Positions 1-27,107 are shown, numbered from the stretch's first letter. The stretch: 64,000 nt of DNA from Candidatus Omnitrophota bacterium (GCA_043800065.1 JAZDNG010000029.1:2837-66836); one strand, 5' to 3'. Made by a program: numbers and translations. Notes: a model not told the origin generated them from the letters alone.

Positions 1-233
1 ATCACTTAGTGGATTATTTAGAAAAAAACGGTATTGAAACGAGAGATTTGTTTTCATCCATGCCTACCCAGTGCCCCGGCTTTTCCTTCCTCGGCTATAA
101 ATCAGGGGATTTTCCTAATGCCGAATATATCGGAAATAACGGCTTACATATAGGAGTTCATCAAGACCTGGGAGAGCGGCACATAGATTATTTTATGGAC
201 GTGGTGGCGAAATTTTTGCGGAGATCAGTCTAA
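1..233 (+). CDS. DegT/DnrJ/EryC1/StrS-family aminotransferase, C-terminal fragment (5' end outside window; reading frame starts at position 3)
   Basis: ORF 9..233 translation (…IETRDLF…FPNAEYIGNNGLHIGVHQDLGERHIDYFMDVV…) resembles the C-terminal small domain of sugar aminotransferases. The ORF is open to the window edge. Stop TAA at 231-233. Confidence 0.5.
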   Translation, partial: HLVDYLEKNGIETRDLFSSMPTQCPGFSFLGYKSGDFPNAEYIGNNGLHIGVHQDLGERHIDYFMDVVAKFLRRSV

Positions 234-1530: not shown

Positions 1531-1541
1531 TTTTCTGATCT

Positions 1542-2174
1542 TTATTCGGTTATTTCTCTTATATTGAAGTTGCTTTTGCTTTTGTCAAAATTTTTATCTA
1601 TGGTAGTGAGGGCATCTAGATTCTTCAGGCCGCGCTCTGCGGCATGGTCGTGAGGTTTTATCTCAAGGACTTTTTTGAAGCACTGCCTGGCCCGTTCATA
1701 ATTCCCTAAATTAGAATGTATCTCTCCCAATAATTCATATACAACGGCGCTTTTCTTTGCGGCTTCTGCGGCACTTTCCAGTGTTACGACAGCGGCCTCT
1801 TCCATTTCTTCAAACTTGAGGAGTATCCCCAGTTTAGTCAGGGCTGCTGCGTTTTTAGGATCGTTTTTAAGTATATCTTCGTAGATAGCCATGGCGTCGT
1901 GAAAGTTACCCTTCATCTCATTGAGCATCGCCAGGAACATAGGGATTAAAGAGAAGATTCTTCTTATGAAGATGGCCAGGGTATTAGGCGGGTTTTCTTC
2001 GATATGCCTTATTTCCGCAATTCTTAAAAGTTGCCTCGCCTTTGCAAAATCAGGCTTTATATTGATGGCGTGGGTAAGCAGGTCTATGGCATATTTATAA
2101 TTCCGCCTCTCCAATGCTATCTGCGCCTTCTCGTAGTGGTCCTTAATCTCTTTCGGTATAGCATCTTCCGGCAT
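1542..2174 (-). CDS. Tetratricopeptide-repeat protein
   Basis: Repeated 34-aa A/Y/L-rich helical repeats (…NYERARQCFKKVLEIKP…, …AMAIYEDILKNDPKNAAALTKLG…). Confidence 0.6.
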   Translation of the reverse strand: MPEDAIPKEIKDHYEKAQIALERRNYKYAIDLLTHAINIKPDFAKARQLLRIAEIRHIEENPPNTLAIFIRRIFSLIPMFLAMLNEMKGNFHDAMAIYEDILKNDPKNAAALTKLGILLKFEEMEEAAVVTLESAAEAAKKSAVVYELLGEIHSNLGNYERARQCFKKVLEIKPHDHAAERGLKNLDALTTIDKNFDKSKSNFNIREITE

Positions 2175-2201
2175 ATTTTAGTCCTTCTGTTTTAGTTTAC
2201 G

Positions 2202-2981
2202 TCAGTTTTTTAAATACGCCCCAACCGTTGCGTTAAACTTATCTTTGTCACATTTCGGTACAAAGATCAAGTTGCCCCATGTAGGCTCATAGTCAAGGGG
2301 GTAGGAGACGCACCGGAGCCATTTACGGTAAGGCCGCGGGAAGCCCTCTCTGCTATATTCTATAGGGGGCGCCCAGTCAGAAACAAATGTTGCATACCCT
2401 TGCTTATTCATATAAGCTGCCATATCATGGTGGGTATAGCCAAAATGGGGGCGTGAACGTTCATCCAAAAATTCCGCTATTATAAGCTCGGGATGATATT
2501 TCGTAAAATCAAAACCTTTGAGCGCCAGAAAATCAGCCCCCTCAATGTCAATTTTTAAGAACGTCACGGTTTTGATATTTAATTCTTTAAGCACATCTTT
2601 TAAAGTGACTGTTTCTACTTCATAGGCCAATTTATGAGTCTTATCGAAAGGTTTAAATGAATGGATTCCCCAATGTATGGCACTTACGTAAAAAGATACC
2701 TTGGCGTTTGCGTCCGATACGGCCTTAGAGATGCAGGTTACATTCTTAAATCCGGCTAAATTATGTTTAAGCGTAGCATACATCTTTCGTTCCGGCTCAA
2801 AAGCCAGAATCCCCCAGCCCTTTTCTGCGAATATGCGCGTGACACGGCCATTATGAGCGCCTACATCTACCAAAAAAGGCTCGTTACTATTAAACTTATA
2901 AGTTGCTATGAGCTCGTGTTCCGAAAATTCCATATTTTTCACCATTTGATTTACCGCCAATAGGGCATCCGTTGAGGACAC
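2202..2981 (-). CDS. FkbM-family SAM-dependent methyltransferase
   Basis: VDVGAHNGRVTRIFAEKG…AFEP… and …FLKIDIEGADFLALKG motifs are typical of the FkbM methyltransferase family. Confidence 0.7.
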   Translation of the reverse strand: MSSTDALLAVNQMVKNMEFSEHELIATYKFNSNEPFLVDVGAHNGRVTRIFAEKGWGILAFEPERKMYATLKHNLAGFKNVTCISKAVSDANAKVSFYVSAIHWGIHSFKPFDKTHKLAYEVETVTLKDVLKELNIKTVTFLKIDIEGADFLALKGFDFTKYHPELIIAEFLDERSRPHFGYTHHDMAAYMNKQGYATFVSDWAPPIEYSREGFPRPYRKWLRCVSYPLDYEPTWGNLIFVPKCDKDKFNATVGAYLKN

Positions 2982-3174: not shown

Positions 3175-3528
3175 ATGAACAGATTGGAGATTATGAATAA
3201 CCACGTTGCTTTAAAAGAAGAACAGACGCTTAATCTTATACGCGAGGTAGAAAAAGACCCCGCACTTAACCAAAGAACGCTTTCCCAGAAACTTAACGTG
3301 TCTTTGGGTAAGACAAACTACCTTCTTAATGAACTTGCCAAAAAAGGCGTTATCAAAATAGCCAGTTTCTCTAAAAATCCCAAAAAGGCCAAGAAGATAC
3401 GCTACATTCTTACACAAAAAGGCCTTCAGCAGAAAATAAAACTTACCTGCCAATTTCTCCAGGTTAAGGAGACGGAGTATAAAAAGCTGAAAGATGAATA
3501 TGATGAATATGTTAACGGGAGGGTATGA
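3175..3528 (+). CDS. MarR-family EPS-associated winged-helix transcriptional regulator
   Basis: 117 aa. The segment …LNQRTLSQKLNVSLGKTNYLLNELAKKGVIKI… is a wHTH resembling the small regulators found at the head of exopolysaccharide and nonulosonate loci. Its stop overlaps the pseB start (ATGA). Confidence 0.5.
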   Translation: MNRLEIMNNHVALKEEQTLNLIREVEKDPALNQRTLSQKLNVSLGKTNYLLNELAKKGVIKIASFSKNPKKAKKIRYILTQKGLQQKIKLTCQFLQVKETEYKKLKDEYDEYVNGRV

Positions 3529-4517
3529 TGTTAAATAATAAAGTGGTTCTTATAACAGGCGGAACGGGCTCTTTCGGACAGAGATTTACGGAAATAATAT
3601 TCCAAAAGTACCGGCCCAAAAAAATTGTCATATTGAGCAGGGATGAATTTAAGCAATCCGAAATGGCCAGGCGCTTTTACGCCTCTAAGTATAACATCCG
3701 GTTTTTCCTGGGGGACATAAGGGACAAAGATAGGTTGGAGCGGGCCTTTGAGGGCATTGATTATGTAGTCCACGCCGCGGCATTAAAACAAGTTCCGGCC
3801 CTTGAATATAATCCTGGCGAGGCCGTAAAGACCAACATAATCGGCGCGGATAATATCGTCGCCGCCGCCATTAATAAAAATGTTAAGAAAGTAATAGCCC
3901 TATCTACGGATAAAGCGGTAAATCCCATAAGTTTATACGGCGCTACTAAATTGGTGGCGGAAAAGGTATTTGTTGATGCCAATGCCTACGGCGGCAACAG
4001 GGTAAAATTTTCAGTCGTCAGGTACGGCAATGTTGTGGCATCCCGCGGCAGCGTAATCCAGCTTTTTATGGAATTAAAGAAGAAGAATATTAAAGAATTG
4101 CCCATAACGGATGCCAGGATGACGCGTTTTTGGATGACGCTAGAACAAAGTGTTAAGCTTGTAATCAAGGCGCTGGAAGATGCAGAGGGAGGAGAGATAT
4201 TTATACCCCGTATCCCGTCTATGAAAATAATAGATTTGGCAAGGGCCATTGAACCGAAATGTCGCTTTAAGGTTATAGGGATAAGGCCCGGCGAAAAGAT
4301 GCACGAATCATTGACCGCAGAAGATGACTGCAGCAGGATCAAAATATACAGGGATATGTATGTTATTCTGCCGCAATTTTTTGAAAGAAAAGAAGTGCAT
4401 AGAAAATACGAAAAATGCAAATCTGTTCCTAATGGATTTAGCTATAGGAGCGATAATAACATTAGTTGGCTTACCGTAACAAAATTGAGGAAAATTTTGG
4501 ATAATATGACAATATGA
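3525..4517 (+). CDS. pseB: UDP-N-acetylglucosamine 4,6-dehydratase (inverting), PseB/FlaA1
   Basis: Near-collinear with Helicobacter/Campylobacter PseB: ITGGTGSFG…SRDE.KQ.EM…GDVRD…HAAALKQVP..EYNP.E..KTNI.G..N…ALSTDKA.NP..LYGATKL…FS.VRYGNV..SRGSV…PITD..MTRFW.T. Confidence 0.85.
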   Translation: MMLNNKVVLITGGTGSFGQRFTEIIFQKYRPKKIVILSRDEFKQSEMARRFYASKYNIRFFLGDIRDKDRLERAFEGIDYVVHAAALKQVPALEYNPGEAVKTNIIGADNIVAAAINKNVKKVIALSTDKAVNPISLYGATKLVAEKVFVDANAYGGNRVKFSVVRYGNVVASRGSVIQLFMELKKKNIKELPITDARMTRFWMTLEQSVKLVIKALEDAEGGEIFIPRIPSMKIIDLARAIEPKCRFKVIGIRPGEKMHESLTAEDDCSRIKIYRDMYVILPQFFERKEVHRKYEKCKSVPNGFSYRSDNNISWLTVTKLRKILDNMTI

Positions 4518-5668
4518 AAAAAATACTATACGCGCACCAATACATAGATTCTGCCGATATAGATTCGGTCCACATGGCGCTTAAGTCGGATTGGCTTACG
4601 CAGGGGCCGAAGATAAAGGAATTTGAAGATGTATTATATAATTATGCCGGCGCTAAATATGCCGTTGCGGTATCGAGCGGAACAGCCGCGCTACATCTTG
4701 CCATGATGGCGCTCGGAATAGGCAAGGGAGACGAAATCATTACCTCTCCCATCACTTTTTCTGCCAGCGCAAATTGCGCCGTATATGTGGGGGCTACCCC
4801 AAGATTTGTGGATATAGATGATGCTACCTACCATTTGGACATAAAAAAATTAAAAGATTTTCTAAAAGTGCCGTCGCACAGAAAGAAAGTAAAAGCGATT
4901 ATTCCCGTCGATTTTATGGGAACTGTTATTGACACGCCGGCAATAATGAAGGTCTGCGATAAATATGGCATATATATAGTAGAAGATGCGGCACATGCCT
5001 TGGGTGCCGAATACAGATACAACAAAGAATGGCTCAAGGTAGGAAGTTGCCGCCATTGCGATATAACAATACTCAGCTTTCACCCTATAAAACATATAAC
5101 CACGGGCGAAGGCGGCGCCATTCTTACTAATAATAAAGATGTTTGTGAGGCAGCATTGCGGTTTCGCCATCACGGTATTTGCCGGGTTAAAAATAAGCCA
5201 AAATGGATGTACGATATTCCGCAACCGGGATTTAATTACCGTATTACCGATTTTCAGTGCGCTTTGGGTATATCCCAGATGAAAAAATTGGATAAAATGG
5301 TAAATGTGCGTAGGCGATTAGTCGGTAGCTATAACGACGCCTTTAGCTTGATCGAAGAAATCCGATTACCGTATGAAGCAAAAGATACTAAAGCATCATA
5401 CCATTTGTATACCATAAGAGTTCCTGCGGCGCGGCGCAACAGGCTATATGATTATCTAAGGGGCAAAGGCATCCTTACCCAAGTAAATTATATCCCAGTA
5501 CATTTGCTTTCTTATTATAAGAAGAATTTCGGATATAAACGCGGAGATTTTCCGGTTGCCGAAAGATATTTCGACGAATGCCTTAGCCTTCCGCTGCATG
5601 TTGGCCTGTCTAGACAAGACCAAAAAAAAGTAATAGACGAAACCATAAGGTTTTTTAGGAATGAGTGA
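4514..5668 (+). CDS. pseC: UDP-4-amino-4,6-dideoxy-N-acetyl-beta-L-altrosamine transaminase-like (DegT family, PseC-like)
   Basis: DegT-family fold with PLP lysine context …ILSFHPIKHITTGEGGAI…. It directly follows pseB with an ATGA start/stop overlap. Confidence 0.7.
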   Translation: MKKILYAHQYIDSADIDSVHMALKSDWLTQGPKIKEFEDVLYNYAGAKYAVAVSSGTAALHLAMMALGIGKGDEIITSPITFSASANCAVYVGATPRFVDIDDATYHLDIKKLKDFLKVPSHRKKVKAIIPVDFMGTVIDTPAIMKVCDKYGIYIVEDAAHALGAEYRYNKEWLKVGSCRHCDITILSFHPIKHITTGEGGAILTNNKDVCEAALRFRHHGICRVKNKPKWMYDIPQPGFNYRITDFQCALGISQMKKLDKMVNVRRRLVGSYNDAFSLIEEIRLPYEAKDTKASYHLYTIRVPAARRNRLYDYLRGKGILTQVNYIPVHLLSYYKKNFGYKRGDFPVAERYFDECLSLPLHVGLSRQDQKKVIDETIRFFRNE

Positions 5669-6539
5669 TATTTCTGCAAAAAAATTATCATTAGGCACGG
5701 CACAATTCGGCATGGACTACGGAATCGCAAACGAGAGAGGGCGGATGCCAAAAGACAGCGTTTTCAAAGTCCTAGAATATGCAAGCGCTGCCGGCATGGA
5801 TACGCTTGATACCGCATACGAATACGGCGACAGCGAAGAGATCATAGGCGAGTATCTAAAAAATTCAAATAACAGATTTAAGATAATCTCTAAAATGCCC
5901 AAAGCAAACGGCAGTATGGATGATCCGGTTTCGTATTTCCCAAAAAGCTTGAAGCGTCTTAAGCAAGATAAAATTCATGGCTACCTAGTTAGGGATTCGG
6001 AAATCGCAGGATATGAAGAATTATATAAGAAACTTCTTGTCCTAAAAAAAGACGGTCTTATCGAGAAGATAGGCCTGTCCCTATATACTACAGATTCGCT
6101 CGATCAGATCTTAAGGCTCGATTTGCCCGTAGATATACTGCAAGCCCCTTATAATATTTTTGACAGGCGGTTTGAACGCTATTTTCCGGCGCTTAGAGCG
6201 CGCGGCGTTGATATACATACGCGGTCGGTATTTTTGCAAGGGTTATTTTTTCTAAACGAAAAAAGGATCGCCAAAGACTTTACCACCGCAAGTCTTGCGA
6301 TATCGCAACTGCGCGGAGTTTCATCCGGATGCGGCGTGCCGATAGCTGCGTTATGCCTTTCTTTCGTGATGCTGAATAGCAATATAGACAAGGTGATAAT
6401 AGGCGTTGATTCATTAGATCAGCTTAAAGAAAACGTGGATTCATTGAAGTATGTCGGCAAAGTGCAGCAGTTAGGCGACAGTTTAAACGCGCTGGAACTA
6501 GAAAAGGAAGAAATAATTCTTCCGTATACATGGAAATGA
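5661..6539 (+). CDS. Aldo/keto reductase family oxidoreductase
   Basis: N-terminal LGTAQFGMDYG… AKR signature. 292 aa, a typical AKR length. Confidence 0.65.
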   Translation: MSDISAKKLSLGTAQFGMDYGIANERGRMPKDSVFKVLEYASAAGMDTLDTAYEYGDSEEIIGEYLKNSNNRFKIISKMPKANGSMDDPVSYFPKSLKRLKQDKIHGYLVRDSEIAGYEELYKKLLVLKKDGLIEKIGLSLYTTDSLDQILRLDLPVDILQAPYNIFDRRFERYFPALRARGVDIHTRSVFLQGLFFLNEKRIAKDFTTASLAISQLRGVSSGCGVPIAALCLSFVMLNSNIDKVIIGVDSLDQLKENVDSLKYVGKVQQLGDSLNALELEKEEIILPYTWK

Positions 6540-7261
6540 AAGCGACTATTATAGTACAGGCGAGAACGGGCTCTACGCGGCTTCCGGGTAAGGTGCTGCT
6601 GAAGGTGCTTAATAAAAGCGTACTTGAACACCTGATTGAGCGGCTTATGCGCGCGAAAGCGGTCGATAGGATAATTGTTGCGACAACTATCGCCCAAGAC
6701 GATAACAAGATCGTGGACCTAGCGGCCAAAATGGGTATTTCAGCATATCAGGGTTCAGAGGAAGATGTCCTTGACAGGTTTTATCAGACGGCGTTACAGT
6801 TCGGCTTAAAAGATATCGTGCGGATCACGGCTGATTGCCCCCTGATGGATCCGTCGGTGATCGACAAGGGGATTGAATGTTATTTTTCATCGGCTACCGA
6901 TTATGCGTCAAATGTCTTAGAACGTACTTATCCTGACGGCGAAGATGTCGAAGTATTCAGCTTCGATGCTCTTCGTCGCGCATGGAAGGAAACGAGGCTC
7001 CGGTCGGAGAGAGAGCACGTTACGTTGTATGTAAGAAAGCATCCGGAAAAATTCAAATTAACTAATTTTAAGAACGAGATAAACATCGCGGATAAACGAT
7101 GGACCCTTGACAGGGAAGAAGATTTTATTTTTGTAAAAAAAGTTTACGAAGGGCTGTATCCTGATAAGCAATATTTCGGCATGGAAGATATCATGAACTT
7201 TCTAAAAAATAATCCCGGCACGGAAGAGATCAATAAAAAATGGGTCAAACAATATGAATAA
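6530..7261 (+). CDS. CMP-sugar cytidylyltransferase (CTP_transf_3 family; PseF/SpsF/NeuA-like)
   Basis: N-terminal IIVQARTGSTRLPGKVL motif of acylneuraminate/pseudaminate cytidylyltransferases. 243 aa. Confidence 0.6.
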   Translation: MEMKATIIVQARTGSTRLPGKVLLKVLNKSVLEHLIERLMRAKAVDRIIVATTIAQDDNKIVDLAAKMGISAYQGSEEDVLDRFYQTALQFGLKDIVRITADCPLMDPSVIDKGIECYFSSATDYASNVLERTYPDGEDVEVFSFDALRRAWKETRLRSEREHVTLYVRKHPEKFKLTNFKNEINIADKRWTLDREEDFIFVKKVYEGLYPDKQYFGMEDIMNFLKNNPGTEEINKKWVKQYE

Positions 7262-8564
7262 AGGCCAAACGTTATACAAAAAAGCAAAAAAGTTGATTCC
7301 CGGAGGGACGCAGCTTTTTTCCAAAAATCCGGAAAATTTCTTACCGGAACTTTGGCCGGCTTATTACGAAAAAGCAAAAGGCTGTAATATCTGGGGGCTA
7401 GACGGAAAAAAGTATCGCGATATGGGCCATATGGGTATCGGCGCCTGTATTTTGGGTTACGCCGATAAAGATGTCGATGGTGCGGTAAAGCGGGCAGTTC
7501 AAAAGGGTTCTATGACTACTCTTAATTGCTACGAAGAAGTCGAGTTAGCGGAATTGCTTTGCGATATTCATCCTTGGGCCAAGAAAGTGCGATACGCCAG
7601 AACCGGCGGCGAGGCAATGACTGTAGCGGTGAGGGTCGCCAGAACAAAGACAAAAAAAGATATAATACTTTTTTGCGGTTATCACGGTTGGCACGATTGG
7701 TATCTGTCCGCGAATTTGGCGGATGACAGGTGCTTGGACGGGCATCTTCTTCCGGGGTTGAAGCCGGCAGGGGTGCCGCGGGGGCTCAAAGGCACGTCGC
7801 TCCCGTTTAGTTATAACGACATAAACGGATTTACGAAATTAATAGAGAGGCACAAGGGTAAGATCGCCGCTGTGGTTATGGAGCCGATAAGGAATTATTC
7901 TCCCGACAGGGGGTTCCTTGAAACAATACGCGAAGCGGCGGATGATTCTGGAGCGATACTTATATTTGACGAAATCACGGCTGGGTGGCGCCTTAATTTC
8001 GGAGGAGCGCATCTTAAATTCGGGGTCGATCCGGATATAGCTGTTTTTGCGAAGGCCATAAGCAACGGTTACCCTATGGCGGCAATCATAGGAAAAAAAG
8101 ACGTAATGGACGCCGCCGAGGAGACTTTTATAAGCAGCACGTATTGGACAGAGCGCATAGGTCCGGTGGCTGCCCTGGCGACCATAAAAAAGTTAAAAAA
8201 GCTCAATATTTCGGCGCATCTTGAACATATGGGTAAAGTTGTCCAGGACGGCTGGAGGAAGACGGCGAAAAAACACAGCATTAACATAACTATAAGCGGG
8301 ACGCCGCCTTTAGGGCATTTCTCATTCTATTATGATAAGCCGCTTGTTTTAAAAACACTATTTACTCAGGAGATGCTCAAAAAAGGCTTTTTAGCGGCCC
8401 CGGCGTTTTACGCTTCGTATGCTCACAAGGAAAAGGACATAAATGAGTATCTGAAAGCCCTTGACAGCGTATTTAGGATTATTGCCTCGGCCGCAAAAAG
8501 CAGTAATCCCAAAAAGTATCTAAATGGACCGGTTTGCCATAGTGGATTCAAAAGGTTGGCATGA
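7254..8564 (+). CDS. Class-III PLP aminotransferase (glutamate-1-semialdehyde aminomutase-like)
   Basis: …GGEAMTVAVRVAR…, …IFDEITAGWR… and the …FAKAISNGYPMAA… lysine motif are characteristic of GSA-AT-like aminotransferases. Confidence 0.7.
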   Translation: MNKGQTLYKKAKKLIPGGTQLFSKNPENFLPELWPAYYEKAKGCNIWGLDGKKYRDMGHMGIGACILGYADKDVDGAVKRAVQKGSMTTLNCYEEVELAELLCDIHPWAKKVRYARTGGEAMTVAVRVARTKTKKDIILFCGYHGWHDWYLSANLADDRCLDGHLLPGLKPAGVPRGLKGTSLPFSYNDINGFTKLIERHKGKIAAVVMEPIRNYSPDRGFLETIREAADDSGAILIFDEITAGWRLNFGGAHLKFGVDPDIAVFAKAISNGYPMAAIIGKKDVMDAAEETFISSTYWTERIGPVAALATIKKLKKLNISAHLEHMGKVVQDGWRKTAKKHSINITISGTPPLGHFSFYYDKPLVLKTLFTQEMLKKGFLAAPAFYASYAHKEKDINEYLKALDSVFRIIASAAKSSNPKKYLNGPVCHSGFKRLA

Positions 8565-10591
8565 CGAAAGCGGTTATAATAACAGAGGGCGGCAAAAAAA
8601 TAGGACTCGGGCATCTTGCGAGGTGTATCTCTCTTTATCGAGCATTTGAAAAGAAGAAAATTAGCCCGGTGCTTATCATAAACGGCGATAAAACCGCTGA
8701 GGATGTTTTGGCGGGCTACGATTGTCGTATTTTTAACTGGCTCAAGCACAAACAACGGCTATTTGATATTGCGAAAGATTCGGATATAGCGGTTATCGAT
8801 TCTTATATTGCGGGAGCCGGTATATACAAAAGAGTATCTAATTTCGCAAAAGCCGCTGTGTATCTTGACGATAATATGCGGATGAAGTACCCGCGAGGTA
8901 TTGTGGTAAACGGATCTATCTCTGCCGAGCTTATGAAATATCAGAAATCCAACGGTGTGGAATATTTATTAGGCAGCCGTTATATTTTGCTGAGAAAAGA
9001 ATTTTGGGCTGTGCCTGCAAAACGAATAAACGGTAAAATCAAAAGCATCATGGTCACCTTCGGCGGCGCGGACGGCAGGAACATGACTCCTAAAGTAATA
9101 GATTTCCTGAATACCCGCTATCCCAGCGCGGAAAAAAATGTAATAGTAGGCGCCGGCTTTAAAAATAGCAGAGAAATAGAACGGCTTAAAGATAAAAAGG
9201 TCAATTTGATATACAGTCCGGATACCAAAAAAATGCGCGCGGCCATGCTTAAGTCCAATATAGCTATTTCAGCAGCCGGACAGACATTGTGTGAATTGGC
9301 GAGAATAGGCGTGCCCACTATCGCGGTCTGTGCGGCAGATAATCAGTTTCGCGGCGTAAAGGGCTGGCAGAAAAGCGGCTTTATAAGATATGCTGGAAAA
9401 CATAGCAACAAAGGTCTTTTTAATAAACTGTCATCAGCAATAACAGAATTAGAGCCTTCTCAAAAGCGGCGCAAAGTAAGCGCGATAGGTCGGAGTTTAG
9501 TGGACGGCAAAGGAGCCCAGAGAGTCACCAAGGCAGCTATTGCTGCCGCAAAAAAAGTAAGAGTGATGCTTACGTGCGTAGGAGGCAAGTTCAGCCGCAA
9601 TACGGTAAAGCTGCTGAAAGAGAGCAAAGATCCCGAGATAACGGTTATAGGGGTCGATTCAGGCAGGAGTATCGGATGCATCGATGGCCTGCAAGCGTTT
9701 CATATCGTTCCCCGCGGCTCTGATAAAGTGTATATACCGAAATTATTGGAATTGTGCGGGAAAGAAAGTGTCGATATTGTCATTCCCTGCGCCGATGAAG
9801 AAGTAGCTAAGATAGCCGCTTTTAAATCTCAGTTTGACGGGGCAGGTATTACATGTGCGGTAGATGGCCGGAAAACAGTTGCGCTGACCAATGATAAATT
9901 TGCATTATTTGAGCACCTGTCCAGAAATGGTATAAATATGCCCAGGTACAAATTAATAAAGAGCGCACAAGAGTTGAAGAAAAGCGCAGCATATTTCGGA
10001 TATCCAAAAGAAAAATTTGTGATTAAGCCGAGATGCGGCAGGGGCACGCGCCATACATTTATCATAGGCAATGACGGCGAGTCCATGCCGTTAGAAGAAG
10101 CGCTGAATATATTCGGCGATTTACCGACGAACTTAATGGCCATGGAATACCTTTCGGGCGAGGCGTATGATGTGGATGTCCTGGCGCGTGAAGGTAATCC
10201 ACTTTGCATAGTGCCAAGGCGCCGGACATGGCTAAATAAACTATCGCCCTTTAGTGAAGGGTGCGAGGTCGAAAACAACGAGGATGTAACGGAGTTTGTA
10301 AAGAGAATAACTTTGGTATTAAAGCTTAACTACGCCTATGATTTTGATTGCGGGATTACTGCTAAAGGGAAACCCGCGTTATACGAAATAAACCCGCGTT
10401 TTAGCGGGGCGATAGCCGCAAGCGCCGGCGCAGGGATTAATATGCCTGTCATGTTGGTCAGGATGATGCGCGGTCTGGATATACCGAAAATGCGTATTAA
10501 ATTCGGGACTAAAATGATACCGAAACCAAACGGCGGCATGGACTTCGTACGCTTAAAAACAAAGAGGTTTTTAAAAGAGAACAAAAAATGA
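8561..10591 (+). CDS. Fusion of a PseG-like UDP-sugar hydrolase (N-terminal ~330 aa) with an ATP-grasp ligase domain (C-terminal ~340 aa)
   Basis: N-terminus …GGKKIGLGHLARCISL… is the PseG GxGHxxR signature. The C-terminal half (…VRVMLTCVGGKFSRN…DIVIPCADEEV…YLSGEAYDVDVLA…YEINPRFSG…) has ATP-grasp/PylC-like organisation. Confidence 0.55.
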   Translation: MTKAVIITEGGKKIGLGHLARCISLYRAFEKKKISPVLIINGDKTAEDVLAGYDCRIFNWLKHKQRLFDIAKDSDIAVIDSYIAGAGIYKRVSNFAKAAVYLDDNMRMKYPRGIVVNGSISAELMKYQKSNGVEYLLGSRYILLRKEFWAVPAKRINGKIKSIMVTFGGADGRNMTPKVIDFLNTRYPSAEKNVIVGAGFKNSREIERLKDKKVNLIYSPDTKKMRAAMLKSNIAISAAGQTLCELARIGVPTIAVCAADNQFRGVKGWQKSGFIRYAGKHSNKGLFNKLSSAITELEPSQKRRKVSAIGRSLVDGKGAQRVTKAAIAAAKKVRVMLTCVGGKFSRNTVKLLKESKDPEITVIGVDSGRSIGCIDGLQAFHIVPRGSDKVYIPKLLELCGKESVDIVIPCADEEVAKIAAFKSQFDGAGITCAVDGRKTVALTNDKFALFEHLSRNGINMPRYKLIKSAQELKKSAAYFGYPKEKFVIKPRCGRGTRHTFIIGNDGESMPLEEALNIFGDLPTNLMAMEYLSGEAYDVDVLAREGNPLCIVPRRRTWLNKLSPFSEGCEVENNEDVTEFVKRITLVLKLNYAYDFDCGITAKGKPALYEINPRFSGAIAASAGAGINMPVMLVRMMRGLDIPKMRIKFGTKMIPKPNGGMDFVRLKTKRFLKENKK

Positions 10592-11976
10592 GGATCGCAC
10601 TTATTCAAACCGTTCAACAGGAAGATACAGGCAGGCCAGAAATAGGCTTAGGGATACCCTATTTGAAATCCTACCTTTTGAAACACGAGCCGGACGTTGA
10701 AGTGGATTTATTCGTAAACGACGATAGGTTTAAAACTTTTGACCCCACTCATTATAACTTGGTAGGGATATCAAGCGTTTCCTTCTGTTTTGACGAAGCG
10801 AAGGAAATAGCGAAAATGGTAAAAGAAAAAAACGATATTCCTGTTCTTTTGGGCGGCTCCCATATATCAAATCTTCCCCAAAGCATCGAATATAAGTATT
10901 TTGATATAGGTGTTATCGGAGAGGGCGAGCAGACCTTTCTTGAATTAGTTCAAGCGCATAAAAAATACAACAGATTCACGCCAAACATACTTGAAAGCAT
11001 AAAAGGCATTTGTTTTGTTAATGACGAAAAATATTGCTTTACAGGTCATAGAGATTACATATTTCCACTTGATAATATACCTAATTTCAACAAGGACTTT
11101 TTAAGAATTACCGGTGCTTTGCCTTATGTGGTGTCAACGAGAGGCTGCCCCTTCAATTGTAAATATTGCAGTAGTCAAACGATGTGGAAAAGGAAATTAA
11201 GATTTCACTCTGCTGATTACGTTTTAAAGGACATATTGGAAATACAAGAGCTATTCCCCGAAGAGCGTAGGATTATTTTTAAAGATGATAATTTCACCGC
11301 CAATAAAAATATGCTTTTAGGACTTATCGAAAATTTAGACAAGATAGAGAAGAGAAGGGCAAAGTTTATCGGCTCTACCCATATAAAGTTTATAAACGAG
11401 GAGATGCTAAGGATATTCAAGATACTAAACGTTATAAAAATCAATTTTGGCATAGAAACAGCCTCAAACCGGCTCTTAAGGATAATCAGAAAAGGCATGA
11501 CAAAAGAAGATGCACAAGCAACTTTGGATTTGTGCTATAAAAACGGGATAACAACGGGATCGTCGTTTTTAATAGGTTTACCCGAAGAAACTGAAGATGA
11601 TTTAAAAGAGACTTACGAGTTTACTTTGGACAATATGAAAAGAAATAAGCTGTTTACCACCGGCACGAACCTGCTCACGCCCTTGCCCGGCTTAAAAAGC
11701 GAATATTGGGATACGGCTGTGAATAAATACGATATAGACATACATACTTTTGAGTGGAAGAGGTTGGATCTTAGAAGTTTTCACGCTTATTATCTGCAGC
11801 GTAACGGCGGAACCATAAAAGACTGGTGGGCGTGGCGAAAGATGAAAAAGGCATTATACATCGGCGGTCTTCCAGAGGACAAGTTTTTGAAAGTCATAGA
11901 ACCTTACGAAATTGAACTTATAAGGTATAACAAGGCAAATAGTAAGAGAGAAGGCGCTTGTGCAAATAAAAGTTAA
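10588..11976 (+). CDS. B12-binding (class B) radical SAM enzyme
   Basis: N-terminal cobalamin-binding-like domain (…VGISSVSFCFDEAKEIAKMVKE…IPVLLGGSHIS…, GEGEQTF). A CPFNCKYC (Cx3Cx2C) cluster sits at about aa 187. Confidence 0.7.
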   Translation: MRIALIQTVQQEDTGRPEIGLGIPYLKSYLLKHEPDVEVDLFVNDDRFKTFDPTHYNLVGISSVSFCFDEAKEIAKMVKEKNDIPVLLGGSHISNLPQSIEYKYFDIGVIGEGEQTFLELVQAHKKYNRFTPNILESIKGICFVNDEKYCFTGHRDYIFPLDNIPNFNKDFLRITGALPYVVSTRGCPFNCKYCSSQTMWKRKLRFHSADYVLKDILEIQELFPEERRIIFKDDNFTANKNMLLGLIENLDKIEKRRAKFIGSTHIKFINEEMLRIFKILNVIKINFGIETASNRLLRIIRKGMTKEDAQATLDLCYKNGITTGSSFLIGLPEETEDDLKETYEFTLDNMKRNKLFTTGTNLLTPLPGLKSEYWDTAVNKYDIDIHTFEWKRLDLRSFHAYYLQRNGGTIKDWWAWRKMKKALYIGGLPEDKFLKVIEPYEIELIRYNKANSKREGACANKS

Positions 11977-12994
11977 AAATAAAAGAATAGGCGATAACGC
12001 GCCTGTTTTCATAATAGCGGAAATCGGGACAAATCATAACGGCGATTCGAAGCTTGCCGCGAAGCTGATCAAGGAAGCGGCGAAGGCAAGGGTAGATGCC
12101 GTTAAATTTCAGATTGTAAACCCCGAAGAAAGTTACCAGAGAGGAAGCCTTTCCTATAAAGTATTTAAGAAGGCCCGCCTTGACTTCTCTGTTTTAAGAA
12201 CGCTTAAAAAAGAAGCAGAAAGACGGGGTTTAATATTTTTCGCGACACCGGGCGATGTGTCAAGTTTAAAAGAATTGATCAAACTGGGCGTGCCTCTTAT
12301 TAAAATATCCTCTGGCTGCATGACGAATATTGTCCTACTCAGAAAGGCGGCAAAGACGCGACTCCCCATAATAATGTCAACGGGGATGGCATATATGGAT
12401 GAAGTAAAAAACGCGGTTTTGGAATTAGAAAGAAACGGAGCGAGAGACATGGTGCTTTTGCACTGCGTGTCAAGTTATCCGGCAAAGTATGCGGACATCA
12501 ATCTTAACTCTTTGAGGACCCTTAATAATAACTTTAAATATCCTGTAGGCTATTCTGATCACACTGACGATAACCTGGCGTCATTGGCAGCTGTTTCGAT
12601 GGGCGCGGCAGCTATAGAAAAGCATTTTACCTTAAGTAGGAAACTTAAAGGCCCGGAGCACTATTTTTCCTTGGAGCCGGCGGAATTCAGGCGATTGGCA
12701 AAAGATATACGGAATGTGGAAAAGATGCTGGGTAGTTCAGAAAAAAAACCTAGCGAAAAAGAATTAAAGGCGCGAAACACTTTTCGGAGATATCTTGTCT
12801 TTATGCGCGACTTGGGCAGAGGCAGCGTTATACGGGACGAAGACATAGGCGTGAAACGGCTTAATAAGAAAATCGGTTTATCTCCTCAAAAATATGACGA
12901 TATTATAGGAAGCAAGACTTTGGCAGACGTCTCAAAAGATGATCCGGTATCACTAAGGCTGCTTAATGGCAAAAAGAGCGGGGGGATACGGTGA
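11960..12994 (+). CDS. pseI: Pseudaminic/N-acetylneuraminic acid synthase family (NeuB/PseI/LegI), GTG start
   Basis: …VFIIAEIGTNHNGD…AVKFQ… NeuB-family N-terminus. The C-terminal SAF-like tail and 344-aa length are typical. Confidence 0.75.
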   Translation: MQIKVKNKRIGDNAPVFIIAEIGTNHNGDSKLAAKLIKEAAKARVDAVKFQIVNPEESYQRGSLSYKVFKKARLDFSVLRTLKKEAERRGLIFFATPGDVSSLKELIKLGVPLIKISSGCMTNIVLLRKAAKTRLPIIMSTGMAYMDEVKNAVLELERNGARDMVLLHCVSSYPAKYADINLNSLRTLNNNFKYPVGYSDHTDDNLASLAAVSMGAAAIEKHFTLSRKLKGPEHYFSLEPAEFRRLAKDIRNVEKMLGSSEKKPSEKELKARNTFRRYLVFMRDLGRGSVIRDEDIGVKRLNKKIGLSPQKYDDIIGSKTLADVSKDDPVSLRLLNGKKSGGIR

Positions 12995-14352
12995 AAAAGG
13001 GAAACATAGTTTTGTTCTTCCCATCATATGTCGGCATGGGCACATATCATTGGTTTCCCTTTCCTTATCTATATATCGGCCCGTTTTTGGAAAAAGCCGG
13101 ATTTAAATCTGTAATTATCGACGCGAGAATCGAGCCGCAATGGAAAGAACTTTTAAGAAAATCTCTGAACGGTTCATTATGCGTGGGAATAACGGCGATG
13201 ACCGGCTCCGATATCAAGGATGCAATTGAAGCGGCTACTATATGTAAGAAGGCCGATCCAATGATGCCGGTTATTTGGGGAGGTCCGCACGCAACCGCCG
13301 ACCCGGAAGGGACCGCGAGACTAGATTACGTGGATGCCGCTGTGTGCGGCCAGGGCGAAGATGCAATGACTAAAATTGCGGAAAGGGTCTATGAGGGCAA
13401 GGATTTTTCTGGCATCCCCGGCGTGGTATACAAGAAAGGCGAATCGATTTTGAAAAATACTAAAAGCGAAGTTCCTTTTGACTACGACATCTATCCCGGA
13501 TTTCATTTGGTAGATGTAGAGAAATACCGTTCTCCGAATAACATCATATCCGTATTTACTTCCAGGGGGTGTCCATTCAGATGTTCATTCTGCACAACAG
13601 GCGATAAGGATTATTCTGAGAGGACGCTTGAACAGGTAAAGAATGAAATCTCGTTCGTGGTAGATAAGCTCAAATTCAAAAATATATTTTTTCAAGACGG
13701 CACATTCTTTGTAAAAAAGAAGAGGGTGATGAAAATAGCCGAATGGCTGGTTTCATCCGATATTAATATTAAATGGAAGGGCAAAGCAAGGACGAATTCT
13801 CTTCTTGACTATTCTGCGGAAGAACTTGCGTTGCTGAAGAAATCCGGCCTTGTATCCGTATTTTTCGGAGTAGAATCCGGCTCTCAGTCAATTTTAGACA
13901 GGATGCAGAAGGGCACGAAACCCGAAGATGCCGAAAAAAGCGCCGCGATATGCCGTGACTATGGCATGGAATTCTACGCCTCATTCATGTTCGCCGTTCC
14001 GCACGAGACTACTAAGGACCTGCAAAATACTATCGCGCACATACGTAAATTAAAAAAAATTAATCCCAAGGCGATAATCCAGAACTGCATATACATCCCG
14101 CTGCCAGATACTCCTATGTATGAAGATGCGCGCAGATGCGGATATAAACCGCCTGAAACGCTGGAGGGATGGATTGAAAGGAATATATCTTCGCGGTTTG
14201 AAGAACGTCACGATATTACCTGGATTCCTCCGAAGACACTGAAAGAGTATATAAAAATATATAACAGGGAATTCGGCGTGTATAAACATCTTTTTGAGCG
14301 CGAGAAAGAAGGGGCATACACGTCTGTTTTTAAAGAAAAGACGGAGGGATGA
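12991..14352 (+). CDS. B12-binding (class B) radical SAM enzyme, paralog 2
   Basis: …TSRGCPFRCSFCT… Cx3Cx2C cluster. N-terminal B12-like domain with GQGEDAM. 453 aa. Confidence 0.7.
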   Translation: MKKGNIVLFFPSYVGMGTYHWFPFPYLYIGPFLEKAGFKSVIIDARIEPQWKELLRKSLNGSLCVGITAMTGSDIKDAIEAATICKKADPMMPVIWGGPHATADPEGTARLDYVDAAVCGQGEDAMTKIAERVYEGKDFSGIPGVVYKKGESILKNTKSEVPFDYDIYPGFHLVDVEKYRSPNNIISVFTSRGCPFRCSFCTTGDKDYSERTLEQVKNEISFVVDKLKFKNIFFQDGTFFVKKKRVMKIAEWLVSSDINIKWKGKARTNSLLDYSAEELALLKKSGLVSVFFGVESGSQSILDRMQKGTKPEDAEKSAAICRDYGMEFYASFMFAVPHETTKDLQNTIAHIRKLKKINPKAIIQNCIYIPLPDTPMYEDARRCGYKPPETLEGWIERNISSRFEERHDITWIPPKTLKEYIKIYNREFGVYKHLFEREKEGAYTSVFKEKTEG

Positions 14353-15029
14353 ACATGAAAAAGATCTTAGTGGTCGCAGCGCATCCTGATGACGAAGTAT
14401 TAGGCTGCGGCGGAACCGTCGCTCGAATGATAGCGGAGGGCAATGAAGCATATACGCTCATACTGGGGGAAGGCATAACTTCGCGATATCCCAAAAGCTC
14501 AAATAGGATGAAGAAAGATCTGAGGGAGCTTAGAAAGGCAATAGGGAAGGCCAACCGTGTCATAGGCGCAAAGAGTGTCTTTCCGTTAAATTTTCCTGAC
14601 AACAGGTTCGATACCGTTTCGACGCTTGATATAGTCAGGAGCATAGAAGCTATAAAGAATAGAGTCAAGCCGCAAGTTATATTTACGCACCACTGGCGCG
14701 ATTTGAACATAGACCATAGGGTGGCTTTTAACGCCGTTCTCACGGCATGCCGGCCCGTAGAAGAGGAGACCGTAAGCGCGATTTATTCTTTTGAGATACC
14801 GTCTTCAACGGAATGGAATTACCCTTACACCTTTGCGCCGAATCTATTTGTGGATATAACGGCGATGTTGAGTAGGAAAATTTCGGCAATGAAATGCTAT
14901 GCGACCGAACTGAGAAAATTTCCTCATCCACGGTCTCCCAGGGCTGTTGAGGCGCAGGCTGCAAAATGGGGAAGCGTTGTTTCCAGAAATTATGCCGAAG
15001 CGTTTGAAATCGTGAGAATGATAAAATGA
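14349..15029 (+). CDS. PIG-L/LmbE-family N-deacetylase
   Basis: ILVVAAHPDDEVLGCGGTVA… is the canonical LmbE AHPDDE metal-binding motif. Confidence 0.75.
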   Translation: MNMKKILVVAAHPDDEVLGCGGTVARMIAEGNEAYTLILGEGITSRYPKSSNRMKKDLRELRKAIGKANRVIGAKSVFPLNFPDNRFDTVSTLDIVRSIEAIKNRVKPQVIFTHHWRDLNIDHRVAFNAVLTACRPVEEETVSAIYSFEIPSSTEWNYPYTFAPNLFVDITAMLSRKISAMKCYATELRKFPHPRSPRAVEAQAAKWGSVVSRNYAEAFEIVRMIK

Positions 15030-16006
15030 AATATATAAGCCTATTACGCGCCACGGAAGATGATGGCATACATATATTAAACTGGAGAAATGATCCTACG
15101 GTGCAGAGCAATTTCTTTGACTCCAGGCGTATTTCATTTGAGGAACATATGAGATGGTATAAAGAAAAGCTGCGCGACCCGGATGCAGCTTTATATATAA
15201 GCCGATACGGCAATGACAGGATAGGCGTAATACGCTTCGAAAAGAAAAAGGCCGCCGTGTCTGTAAGCGTCAACGTTGCTCCTCATCTTATCGGAAAGGG
15301 CTTTGGAAGCGAGATCATACGCCTCGGCACTGAGCGCTATTACGCCGAGACAAAACAGAACGTACCTGTCGTAGCCGAGATAAAAATTGAAAACATTTCC
15401 TCTCAAAAAGCGTTCCGGAAGGCCGGATACAACAAGAAGACAAAGGATAAGGCGAAGATTGTTTTTATTAGGAAGCCCGAAGACACGTGTATACGTGATA
15501 AAGAAATCTGTTTCCTGCCTTTGCAACAAAAGCATATAAATAAAATATACCTCGGATGGCTGAATGACCCTGACGTGACCAAGTACCTTGAGACAAAGAA
15601 GTCGACCGAAGAGGAACTCAAAACCTATTATAAGAATATTTTGGGCAACATCAATGTGATGATTTTTGCCATTGAGGTTCGTAAGAGGCATATCGGCAAT
15701 GCAAAACTTGAAGTAAACTGGAAGCACGGGTATGCGAACTTCGGCATCATGATAGGTGATAAAAAGGAGTGGGGCAAGGGGTACGGAGCAAGAGTGGCGC
15801 GCCTTATTGCAGATTATGCCATAAACAGGTTGAACCTTTATTCAGTAATTCTGGGGGTATACGGTAATCATACTGCCGCAATAAGGTCGTACATAAAAGC
15901 CGGCTTTCATATAAAAGGCCGGATGCGTGGTATGTTAGATTTTGAAGGCAAGCGTGTTGATAAGGTATTTATGGGTATTTCGCGGAAAGAGTTGGAGGTG
16001 CGGTAA
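15026..16006 (+). CDS. Tandem GNAT N-acetyltransferase (two PseH-like domains)
   Basis: Two about 160-aa halves each carry GNAT-like motifs. The N-terminal …ILNWRNDPTVQSNFF…EEHMRWY… resembles PseH. Confidence 0.55.
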   Translation: MKYISLLRATEDDGIHILNWRNDPTVQSNFFDSRRISFEEHMRWYKEKLRDPDAALYISRYGNDRIGVIRFEKKKAAVSVSVNVAPHLIGKGFGSEIIRLGTERYYAETKQNVPVVAEIKIENISSQKAFRKAGYNKKTKDKAKIVFIRKPEDTCIRDKEICFLPLQQKHINKIYLGWLNDPDVTKYLETKKSTEEELKTYYKNILGNINVMIFAIEVRKRHIGNAKLEVNWKHGYANFGIMIGDKKEWGKGYGARVARLIADYAINRLNLYSVILGVYGNHTAAIRSYIKAGFHIKGRMRGMLDFEGKRVDKVFMGISRKELEVR

Positions 16007-17614
16007 ATGGCAGGTACGCAATTTCCGGTTGACATATACGCCGTAAAAGAATACGGCGTCAAAAAATGGCAGGGCGAGTTCTTCTGGCCGGTATCGGATG
16101 ACGAGTTTGTAAAACTTGGTACGGAGATCGACCGTTATCTGAAAGACGAGATCAATAGGCAATCTGGCGAAATGAGTGATCTGCTGTTAATCTATAGTTC
16201 GTTGCGTGCGGAATACCTGTTGTTTTTCCATGCGCTGAAAGTCGCCCAAAGAGTAAAGGCGGCGGGCAAGGAGTTAATGTATTCGGATAAGACTTTATGG
16301 TATAAAGAAATTGCATCCGGCGAGCGCATGGAAATTCCGAAGCTCAGAAGAGGCAAGGCAAAATATACGTTTATTAACAGGATAAAAGTAGAGGCAGCCA
16401 GGATTATTTGGCGTATTCTATATAACGATAGGCTAAGCAAGGTTTTCAACCCGAAGGAGAATAAAGAAATTGTTTACATATTCAACTCTTTGACTCCGCT
16501 TATGAAGCTTTATATGAAAAATTCACCCTATACGTTTAACATGACTTCAGAGCGAGACTGGGCAGAGGATAGTTCTTTTGTCAGCATACCCGACAATCTG
16601 CTCAATTCTATAGAGGATACCTCACGAGCCATCTCGGCCAACTTGGCGTCAACTGCGGATAGGAATGGGATAGAACTTTCGGATAATCATAAGGGCTATC
16701 TCACTAAGCTTACCGAAAGCATGCTCACAGACGCGGCAAGGATAATGTATTCAATAAAACCCAAAATAGAGGACAGACGTAATGCGCGGTTTTTTTTGTC
16801 AACGTTCGTCAGTTATTTTCCGAGGGCGCTTGCCGTTCTTGCCCGGAAGAATGGCGGCCATGTAACTACCTTCAGTCACGGCGGTAGCATAGGCCTTTAC
16901 GATGCATCCACAATGGCTTTTCAGGAATTCGCGGTTTCAGACGAATATGTCACCTATAACAAGAAGAGCACAGAGCTTTTTGAACGTATTAAGAATAATA
17001 ACCCCGCTCTCCGGAATAACGATACGCTCATAACATCGTGCGATGACAATGCATATGAAAATATGTGGCTGATAAACCGCAATAAGCCACTGCCGAAAGA
17101 AATAAAGAAAGTCATGATTATAGGATATCCCCATAACCAAGGGAGGAAGTACCATGCGCCCGGTTCAGTGTCCCTCATCCAGCTCGATCTTGAATTACGC
17201 CTGGCCGATTTTTTAAGAGGGCATGGATATGATGTATTCTATAAGGCGCATCCTGACAGAATTGCCGAAGTAAAGGGAGTCTTTGACGACAGCGCCAAAG
17301 TACTGGAAGGGTATTTTCAGAATTACATCGATAGCGTCGATGCATTTATATTCGGCAGCATAAGGACAACGGCATTTTTAGTAGCGCTGTGCACGAATAA
17401 GCCGGTAATCGGATTTATGATGGAGAACGAAAGATTTAAACCCTTTCCTGAGGCGCTAGAAAGTCTTAAAAAAAGATGTAACATGGTAAAGGCAAAATTT
17501 GACGAGCATAACCGTATCGTTTTCAACGAAAAAAAACTTTCTGATGCTTTAGCCCAAAAACCGACTCAACCAAATACCGAATTTATTGAGAAGTATATAT
17601 TTCCGGAAAAATAA
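16007..17614 (+). CDS. Hypothetical protein, candidate GT-B ulosonic/nonulosonic-acid transferase (HP motif)
   Basis: 535 aa. The C-terminal region (…VMIIGYPHN…VFYKAHPDRI…) contains the K-x-HP motif shared by bacterial sialyltransferases and KpsC/KpsS Kdo transferases. No other recognisable family. Confidence 0.3.
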   Translation: MAGTQFPVDIYAVKEYGVKKWQGEFFWPVSDDEFVKLGTEIDRYLKDEINRQSGEMSDLLLIYSSLRAEYLLFFHALKVAQRVKAAGKELMYSDKTLWYKEIASGERMEIPKLRRGKAKYTFINRIKVEAARIIWRILYNDRLSKVFNPKENKEIVYIFNSLTPLMKLYMKNSPYTFNMTSERDWAEDSSFVSIPDNLLNSIEDTSRAISANLASTADRNGIELSDNHKGYLTKLTESMLTDAARIMYSIKPKIEDRRNARFFLSTFVSYFPRALAVLARKNGGHVTTFSHGGSIGLYDASTMAFQEFAVSDEYVTYNKKSTELFERIKNNNPALRNNDTLITSCDDNAYENMWLINRNKPLPKEIKKVMIIGYPHNQGRKYHAPGSVSLIQLDLELRLADFLRGHGYDVFYKAHPDRIAEVKGVFDDSAKVLEGYFQNYIDSVDAFIFGSIRTTAFLVALCTNKPVIGFMMENERFKPFPEALESLKKRCNMVKAKFDEHNRIVFNEKKLSDALAQKPTQPNTEFIEKYIFPEK

Positions 17615-19253: not shown

Positions 19254-19254
19254 G

Positions 19255-20777: not shown

Positions 20778-20806
20778 TGGATAATTTTTAGCAAAAGGAG
20801 CCAAAG

Positions 20807-21850: not shown

Positions 21851-21934
21851 AAGCATGCAGAAAGCGAAGAGCTGTTAAAAACATAAAATATTCAGACCTT
21901 TAACAAAAAACATTCAGCAGGATAAAGAAAGAAA

Positions 21935-27103: not shown

Positions 27104-27107
27104 AATT

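Follow-up and report, generated by a model that had tools for sequence, protein, structure and literature searches.

Why would a hydrolase of pseudaminic acid biosynthesis be joined to an ATP-grasp ligase in one polypeptide, and what could such a ligase add to the pathway? The question is raised by a gene at 8561..10591 on the plus strand of a 64,000-nucleotide stretch of DNA from a Candidatus Omnitrophota bacterium (GCA_043800065.1, JAZDNG010000029.1:2837-66836), hereafter the window, which a preliminary description made from the sequence alone had read as a PseG-like hydrolase fused to an ATP-grasp carboxylate-amine ligase. We find that the fusion is a genuine and rare, lineage-specific joining of genes that are normally adjacent and overlapping, and that the locus around it probably swaps the N-acetyl group of a sugar for another acyl group, giving a non-canonical pseudaminic acid (Pse)-type sugar.

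The gene begins with ATG and continues for 676 codons with no internal stop, and the single 676-residue polypeptide that had been proposed to join the two enzymes is thus encoded by one uninterrupted open reading frame. Its start codon shares bases with the TGA stop of the class-III aminotransferase gene upstream (ATGA), its own TGA overlaps the ATG of a downstream B12-binding radical SAM gene, and the whole lies within a long co-directional operon reaching from 3175 to beyond 21850. An identical protein (P0001) is recorded at NCBI as 'MAG: ATP-grasp domain-containing protein [Candidatus Omnitrophota bacterium]'. Mapping of the domains by hidden Markov models and an AlphaFold2 (AF2) model assigns residues 1-322 (8561..9526) to the PseG-type hydrolase, residues 323-333 (9527..9559) to an Ala/Lys-rich linker, TKAAIAAAKKV, and residues 334-676 (9560..10588) to the ATP-grasp ligase, all on the plus strand. 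Stand-alone PseG genes of relatives end '...DGKGAQRIVEKILWKA*', the stand-alone ligase of relatives starts 'MESVKILLTC...', and the window reads '...DGKGAQRVTKAAIAAAKKVRVMLTC...' across the junction; the boundary is placed at residues 322/334 because the stand-alone end and the stand-alone start align there. The linker takes the place of the stop/start overlap seen in the separate genes.

A whole-protein search of 5.8 billion protein clusters returned only four proteins spanning both halves, P0001 to P0004, of which the first is the window protein, the second is 74 % and the third 58 % identical to it, and the fourth has its PseG part broken by a frameshift within an A7 run. When the ATP-grasp half was used for an exhaustive HMMER scan of 1.84 billion representatives, P0002 and P0004 were the only PseG fusions among the best 150 matches, and none of 43 metagenome loci carries the fusion. 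One alternative is that the fusion arose artificially during assembly or sequencing, a single wrong base in the A7 stretch of the linker DNA having joined two separate genes; the linker DNA does contain GCAAAAAAAGTA, and the fourth fused gene, whose PseG part is split at L003:~3216-3306, probably by sequencing error, shows that A7 runs cause frameshifts in assemblies of this kind. However, the four fused proteins were recovered from different samples, and the three other metagenome assemblies (L001, L002 and L003), in which the ATP-grasp half is 52-80 % identical, read through in the same frame. The linker is homologous in all four (AAIAAAKK, AAIADAKR, EAVAAAKK and KVIAEARK), with homology extending about 10 residues on either side of the run, as the linker regions of the window (TKAAIAAAKKVRVMLTC), P0002 (ARAAIADAKRVRVLLTC), P0003 (AREAVAAAKKIRVLLTC) and P0004 (AEKVIAEARKVRVLLTC) show. 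Because the assemblies have different linker DNA (an A7 run in the window but A5 in L001) and yet the same frame is read, an indel at the homopolymer is excluded as the origin of the fusion, and we regard the artefact as having a negligible probability.

The fusion itself is a modest step, in which a stop was lost in an overlapping gene pair and the product was kept while the sequences diverged to 52-80 % identity. In the closest non-fused relatives, PseG (about 325-330 residues) and ATP-grasp (about 345 residues) are encoded by adjacent genes, which overlap by 4-25 nucleotides in L009, L010 and L011; PseG is likewise directly upstream but separate in five metagenome loci, of which L022, L025, L033 and L055 are four and the L009 contig, met again, is the fifth. 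In a neighbour-joining tree the separate P0090 is placed next to the pair formed by the window protein and P0002, and therefore either a later fission has occurred or the tree is poorly resolved. The architecture that had been called unusual is accordingly rare, as four fused proteins attest, but the relatives carry the same two genes as overlapping neighbours. Because the fused genes are ordinarily adjacent and overlapping, the novelty lies mostly in the module that the ligase forms with a deacetylase and a divergent synthase, both considered below.

On sequence criteria the N-terminal half is a PseG-type uridine diphosphate (UDP)-sugar hydrolase domain with intact catalytic motifs. Residues 4-262 match the NCBIfam PseG model TIGR03590 for UDP-2,4-diacetamido-2,4,6-trideoxy-beta-L-altropyranose hydrolase (E value 2e-40, 139 bits), residues 175-258 match Pfam Glyco_tran_28_C, and the GxGHxxR motif reported earlier is present as GLGHLAR at residues 15-21 (G15-L-G17-H18-L-A-R21). 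In 33 relatives of this half G15, G17, H18, R21, D80, Y82, N261 and Q262 are invariant. A single-sequence search of the half against PDB sequences gave no match; the family profile of its relatives matches PseG of C. jejuni (3hbm) with an E value of 8e-26 over 273 positions and aligns H18 to His17, which we take to be the catalytic histidine of that enzyme. The window protein thus keeps the GxGH with its histidine, the DxY and the NQ of C. jejuni PseG (PDB 3hbm/3hbn), but differs in giving no direct pairwise sequence match, in scoring below the TIGR03590 cut-off, and in having about 50 additional C-terminal residues and a fused second enzyme. The domain ends where stand-alone PseG genes end, and the operon context of PseG is present: PseB (3525..4517, plus strand; TIGR03589, 473 bits, cut-off 407.75) and PseC (4514..5668, plus strand; TIGR03588, 458 bits, cut-off 423.5) both exceed their cut-offs, and the second gene downstream encodes a NeuB-family synthase. 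At 40-53 % identity, the half is most closely related to bifunctional PseG/PseH proteins of about 490 residues, in which PseG is followed by a GNAT domain (PseG-GNAT).

The C-terminal half is an intact ATP-grasp ligase domain with a predicted activity. Three Pfam models match above their cut-offs with E values from 1e-10 to 2e-22, namely PylC-like_N at 337-432 (40.3 bits, cut-off 27), ATP-grasp_3 at 444-616 and ATPgrasp_Ter at 524-640, and Pfam and NCBIfam give no GNAT match within the 676-residue protein. The domain was modelled alone because in the MAFFT alignment GNAT domains from PseG-GNAT relatives had been pushed into the columns of ATP-grasp; the AF2 model, covering residues 326-676 and built on 24 homologues, has a predicted local distance difference test score (pLDDT) of 88.8 and a predicted template modelling score (pTM) of 0.89. 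At E <= 1e-3 Foldseek found 655 PDB matches, and the 50 that were listed are all ATP-grasp enzymes. The best is 2pn1, an Exiguobacterium structural-genomics protein of unknown function (E value 5e-23), after which come the L-amino-acid ligases RizA (4wd3) and BL00235 (3vot), and then PurK, biotin carboxylase and PylC (4ffl). Since Pfam, AF2 and Foldseek all give ATP-grasp, the earlier assignment of this half holds, and the possibility that it adopts some other fold has not materialised.

The nucleotide/Mg signature of the superfamily is kept as K489, E529 and E609-x-N611-x-R613, which vary little or not at all among 24-27 family members; by analogy, K489, E529, E609, N611 and R613 are predicted to be ATP/Mg2+ ligands. 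The family, which has about 1700 members at E < 1e-10, has conserved motifs of its own: LTCxGG, ADEE, P-R553-R554-R555 and D594-x-D596. The three-lobed ATP-grasp fold (template modelling (TM) score 0.64-0.72) and the Lys and Glu-x-Asn-x-Arg motifs are shared with 2pn1, RizA, BL00235 and PylC, but at 13-22 % identity only and, in the window, in the context of a sugar pathway, and in the alignment LTCxGG, ADEE, PRRR and DxD do not recur in 2pn1. The best characterised fold neighbours are the L-amino-acid ligases and PylC (TM about 0.65, 13-17 % identity). A different chemistry is suggested by the nearest NCBIfam models, which belong to PRK12767 and are named 'carbamoyl phosphate synthase-like protein', and by the presence of PurK and biotin carboxylase among the best fold matches: the enzyme might activate bicarbonate, as these two and carbamoyl-phosphate synthetase do, and N-carboxylate or carbamoylate a sugar amine. 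All such scores are below cut-off, however (the best, NF009402, reaches 123.6 bits against 218), and the L-amino-acid ligases match the fold as well or better, which makes bicarbonate activation very improbable.

The gene neighbourhood of the ligase is conserved. A total of 51 loci with a homologue of the ATP-grasp half were collected at 22-80 % identity, a scan of a genome collection contributing 7 loci from one peptide pattern and a metagenome scan adding to it. Of the ATP-grasp loci, 22 have flanks of 3 kb or more on either side; they include near-duplicates (L009 = L021, L039 = L046, and L015 close to L018, L027 and L030) and are therefore not independent. Among these 22, a NeuB-family synthase is a neighbour in 18, almost always within 120 nucleotides, a PIG-L deacetylase in 18, a class-III aminotransferase and a cytidylyltransferase in 15 each, and PseG and a GNAT2-like gene in 14 each. 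The association spans Omnitrophota, Chloroflexota/SAR202, Acidimicrobiia and Verrucomicrobia. The order PseG, ATP-grasp, synthase (sometimes with radical SAM), PIG-L, tandem GNAT and a 535-residue protein is common to the window, L001, L009/L021, L010, L011 and L022. The PseG-GNAT locus L006 follows the order of the window up to the synthase (winged helix-turn-helix (wHTH) protein, PseB, PseC, aldo-keto reductase, cytidylyltransferase, class-III aminotransferase, PseG:GNAT, synthase), but lacks PIG-L, the tandem GNAT and the 535-residue protein.

In the window the PIG-L/LmbE-family de-N-acetylase is encoded at 14349..15029 on the plus strand (PF02585, 86.8 bits), its best match among NCBIfam models being BshB1. 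It is four genes downstream of the fusion and not two, as the preliminary description had it, a radical SAM gene, the NeuB-like synthase and a second radical SAM gene lying between. The functional link drawn there between ligase and deacetylase nevertheless gains comparative support, PIG-L being present in 18 of the 22 ATP-grasp loci versus none of three distinct PseG-GNAT loci.

The synthase changes along with the ligase. That of the window (11960..12994, plus strand) belongs to a divergent subfamily falling below both relevant cut-offs (NeuB_NnaB, 323 bits against 399.65; PseI, 265.8 against 340.25), and in all ATP-grasp loci tested, i.e. the window, L009 (11022-12032), L010 (3809-4864) and L015 (4946-5980), the synthase scores 241-274 bits for PseI and 302-334 bits for NeuB, short of both. 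PseG-GNAT loci, L006 among them, instead have a true PseI, with 470-517 bits against the cut-off of 340.25. The window synthase is 58 % identical to that of L011 and 36 % to that of L006, whereas for PseG the values are 40 % and 51 %. At the level of sequence, then, the synthase co-varies with ATP-grasp and PseG does not, from which we infer that the substrate of PseG is conventional and that of the synthase altered, placing the modification between the two steps.

These observations can be accommodated in a scheme in which the fusion protein is a bifunctional enzyme of a variant pseudaminic-acid-type pathway, with removal of an N-acetyl group and subsequent ATP-dependent re-acylation beside the PseG step. 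PseB and PseC would make UDP-4-amino-4,6-dideoxy-L-AltNAc, the PseH-like half of a GNAT protein would acetylate its 4-amine, and the PseG domain would hydrolyse off UDP and free the hexose. The PIG-L deacetylase would then strip one N-acetyl group, exposing an amine to which the ATP-grasp domain would ligate a small carboxylic acid, probably an amino acid or a D-2-hydroxy acid, after activating it as an acyl phosphate. The divergent NeuB-type synthase would condense the re-acylated hexose with phosphoenolpyruvate, and the product would be activated with cytidine monophosphate (CMP) and transferred by the GT-B-like protein encoded downstream. For the second GNAT domain, a possible role is to cap an amino-acyl group at its amine, and the existence of an ATP-grasp:GNAT fusion (P0118) is consistent with such consecutive action. 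The fusion would couple two adjacent steps that in most relatives are encoded by overlapping neighbour genes. In this scheme the architecture, the fold, the catalytic motifs and the gene association are observed features, while the exchange of the N-acyl group, the sequence of reactions and the nature of the acyl donor are our interpretation. Taken as a whole, we consider the chances that it is right to be evenly balanced.

Several points weigh against it. The 139 bits of the PseG half are, if marginally, under the TIGR03590 equivalog cut-off of 153.55 (the L006 PseG-GNAT protein scores 152.8 and the stand-alone PseG of L015 192.4), and no characterised close homologue of the ATP-grasp half was found, the nearest structure being 2pn1. 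PIG-L was not found in 4 of the 22 well-flanked loci, the locus counts containing some near-duplicates, and in L002 the 3 kb of downstream sequence contain no PIG-L gene.

A further such point is position: the place taken by the ATP-grasp domain is precisely that of the PseH GNAT in the closest PseG relatives. This speaks for a different reading, namely that the ligase replaces PseH and transfers a non-acetyl acid onto the 4-amine of UDP-4-amino-4,6-dideoxy-L-AltNAc before PseG acts, PIG-L and the GNATs editing another position (2-N, later N5). The PseG-GNAT proteins are the closest relatives of the PseG half, in the syntenic L006 the GNAT domain holds the exact ATP-grasp position, and consecutive steps are usual for fused enzymes. 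But all ATP-grasp loci in which a PseH-like GNAT was looked for proved to have one; in the window this is the C-terminal half of the tandem GNAT acetyltransferase at 15026..16006 on the plus strand (Acetyltransf_3 in two stretches), which scores 88.9 bits for TIGR03585 against a cut-off of 93.1. Because of this persistence the ligase looks like an addition and not a replacement of PseH. Moreover, PseG does not co-vary with ATP-grasp, though its substrate would change, and in distant loci the tightest neighbour of ATP-grasp is NeuB and not PseG. We therefore judge the replacement of PseH to be unlikely.

The last of these points against re-acylation at the hexose stage comes from a fusion of CTP_transf_3 cytidylyltransferase to ATP-grasp (P0136, locus L019), with PIG-L 3 kb away, a hint that the nonulosonate or the CMP-sugar is the stage at which some members of the family work. 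The ligase could then be a late enzyme whose substrate is the nine-carbon acid or the CMP derivative of that acid, either re-acylating N5 or N7 after deacetylation at that stage or amidating the C1 carboxylate with an amine, and the direct adjacency of NeuB in most loci would agree with this. On the other hand, the ligase is fused to a hexose-stage enzyme, PseG, and the fusion has been kept as the proteins diverged, and the synthase is divergent in all ATP-grasp loci tested, suggesting that its substrate is already modified. Late action thus appears quite improbable.

Returning to deacetylation and re-acylation beside PseG, the closest parallel in logic is found in the biosynthesis of mycothiol (MshB, then MshC) and bacillithiol (BshB, then BshC), in which a PIG-L/LmbE deacetylase uncovers the 2-amine of an N-acetyl-hexosamine for the subsequent ligation of an amino acid. 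The same deacetylate-then-ligate logic is proposed for the window locus, whose PIG-L best matches BshB1, but MshC and BshC are not ATP-grasp enzymes and the substrates there are inositol and malate conjugates of N-acetylglucosamine (GlcNAc-inositol and GlcNAc-malate), not Pse intermediates. The bifunctional PseG/PseH protein offers the closest parallel in architecture, having an N-terminal PseG domain 40-53 % identical to that of the window, the same locus position between class-III aminotransferase and synthase (L006) and a C-terminal amide-forming partner domain (a predicted role in the window). It differs in that its partner domain is an acetyl-CoA (coenzyme A)-dependent GNAT and not an ATP-dependent ATP-grasp, and the window locus adds PIG-L, a tandem GNAT, the 535-residue GT-B-like protein and a non-PseI synthase.

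As to the acyl donor, VanH and VanA are a D-2-hydroxyacid dehydrogenase and an ATP-grasp ligase, the latter making a depsipeptide for peptidoglycan. A D-2-hydroxyacid dehydrogenase gene lies directly downstream of distant ATP-grasp homologues at L016:5381-6085, L023:4864-5565 and L039/L046:9064-9978, and the window cluster has a 2-hydroxyacid dehydrogenase gene at 17645, beside a HAD phosphatase. This dehydrogenase-ligase pairing recalls VanH/VanA and hints at lactoyl, glyceroyl or glycolyl groups, with which it would fit; unlike in the VanH/VanA case, the pairing is not universal among ATP-grasp loci, and the dehydrogenase and HAD phosphatase of the window may belong to a neighbouring Kdo-like module. 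In an Acidimicrobiia metagenome-assembled genome (MAG) an HMGL-like gene of the homocitrate/isopropylmalate synthase type (L017:6882-8624) lies between ATP-grasp and PIG-L and could be a source of a 2-hydroxy-dicarboxylic acid donor. A Methanoregulaceae archaeon MAG contains a 5'-truncated ATP-grasp fragment (L012:6001-6657) of 71 % identity, located where a contig ends and preceded by unrelated sequence, for which horizontal transfer, gene disruption or mis-binning are possible explanations; being no more than such a fragment, it was set aside as uninformative.

Pseudaminic and legionaminic acids bear many N-acyl groups, including glyceroyl, hydroxybutyryl, amino-acyl and acetimidoyl, and these shape the antigenicity of flagella, capsules and S-layers; to our knowledge, the enzymes that install most of the non-acetyl groups have not been identified. 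A study of Tannerella described the genetic basis of its N-glyceroyl and N-acetimidoyl groups as unknown, and N-glyceroyl as 'a major challenge' (PMC5378307). Our literature search found no paper linking ATP-grasp or an LmbE-type deacetylase to Pse, legionaminic acid or nonulosonate biosynthesis. An ATP-grasp 'carbamoyl-phosphate synthetase-like' gene described as a carboxylate-amine ligase, CDR20291_0245, occurs in the type B flagellin glycan locus of C. difficile (PMC5207246) and is alike by that description, as an ATP-grasp gene in a glycan-modification locus; it is mentioned there without further characterisation, the glycan is not a nonulosonate and PseG is not fused. It is plausible that the module is an apparently undescribed variant of the pseudaminic-acid pathway. 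More broadly, though with somewhat less than even confidence, we suggest that ATP-grasp, PIG-L and the divergent synthase constitute a branch of nonulosonic-acid biosynthesis that has not been described before, an 'N-acyl editing' branch widespread among uncultured bacteria, which would install amino-acyl or hydroxy-acyl groups at the hexose stage in an ATP-dependent, CoA-independent manner, the PseG:ATP-grasp fusion serving as Rosetta-stone evidence. The locus offers a compact candidate in a deacetylase and an ATP-grasp ligase, fused to PseG in this lineage, together with a co-evolving synthase. Were the re-acylation scheme correct, a CoA-independent acylation route would be added to the pathway and tools would be gained for the chemo-enzymatic synthesis of modified nonulosonates, and the 'N-acyl editing' branch would account for enzymatic steps still missing for nonulosonates with N-acyl groups other than acetyl, the N-glyceroyl forms among them; if not, the gene would be a minor domain-fusion curiosity of an uncultured Omnitrophota genome.

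Between PseC and PseG, at 5661..8564, the window has a plus-strand cassette of aldo-keto reductase (5661..6539), CTP_transf_3 cytidylyltransferase (6530..7261) and a GSA-aminomutase-like class-III aminotransferase (7254..8564), which may put an additional amino group on the sugar. Other copies lie at L010:3-1844, L014:2344-4416 and L015:2355-4409; the cytidylyltransferase and aminotransferase are fused in L010, L014, L015 and L018, giving proteins of 684-690 residues in SAR202/Dehalococcoidia loci. A reductase/cytidylyltransferase/class-III aminotransferase cassette also occurs in the O-antigen loci of Legionella pneumophila Sg6/12 (PMC3694923). A role of the cassette as specific supplier of the acyl donor was rejected, as it occurs without ATP-grasp both there and in PseG-GNAT loci (L006).

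Directly downstream of the fusion gene the operon core has its first B12-binding radical SAM gene (10588..11976; PF04055 and PF02310), which is accessory, being present in PseG-GNAT loci too; a second lies at 12991..14352 and a third at 21935..23515, all on the plus strand. The three, methyltransferase-like and in one glycan cluster, have homologues adjoining the synthase in L003, L006, L008 and L011, and suggest C-methylation of the sugar or its acyl group.

The conserved 535-residue protein (16007..17614, plus strand) is predicted to have a GT-B-like fold (AF2, pLDDT 90.5). It has no match in Pfam, NCBIfam or PDB sequences, and in Foldseek gives weak GT-B matches (TM 0.26-0.36) to UGTs, UDP-GlcNAc 2-epimerase/NeuC, LpxB and KpsC. 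Some 40 homologues were found, all from uncultured bacteria; K413-x-H415-P416, which resembles the HP motif of sialyl/Kdo transferases, is invariant in the family, and the gene follows the GNAT gene in L001, L002, L009, L010, L011 and L022. On its model it may be a candidate transferase for the modified nonulosonate. Kinship with the Asn-synthase/PseA-like proteins whose genes are similarly placed in L015 and L017 was rejected, there being no similarity.

The dehydrogenase gene at 17645 opens a further plus-strand group (17645..24137), which encodes a PGDH-like 2-hydroxyacid dehydrogenase, the HAD phosphatase, an HpcH/HpaI-type aldolase, KdsB, a GFO/IDH oxidoreductase, the third B12-radical SAM enzyme and a GmhA-like SIS isomerase. 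With a bona fide KdsB (295 bits against 255), it looks like a non-canonical Kdo-type pathway in which a class-II aldolase replaces KdsA. Farther on, downstream of an ATP-binding cassette (ABC) exporter (25346..27103), a 700-residue protein with class-I SAM methyltransferase and APH-type phosphotransferase domains is encoded at 27096..29198 on the plus strand. Upstream of the cluster and divergent from it, 193..2981 on the minus strand encodes a PMT_2/ArnT-like glycosyltransferase, a tetratricopeptide repeat (TPR) protein and an FkbM methyltransferase; the TPR and wHTH arrangement also precedes the cluster in L009.

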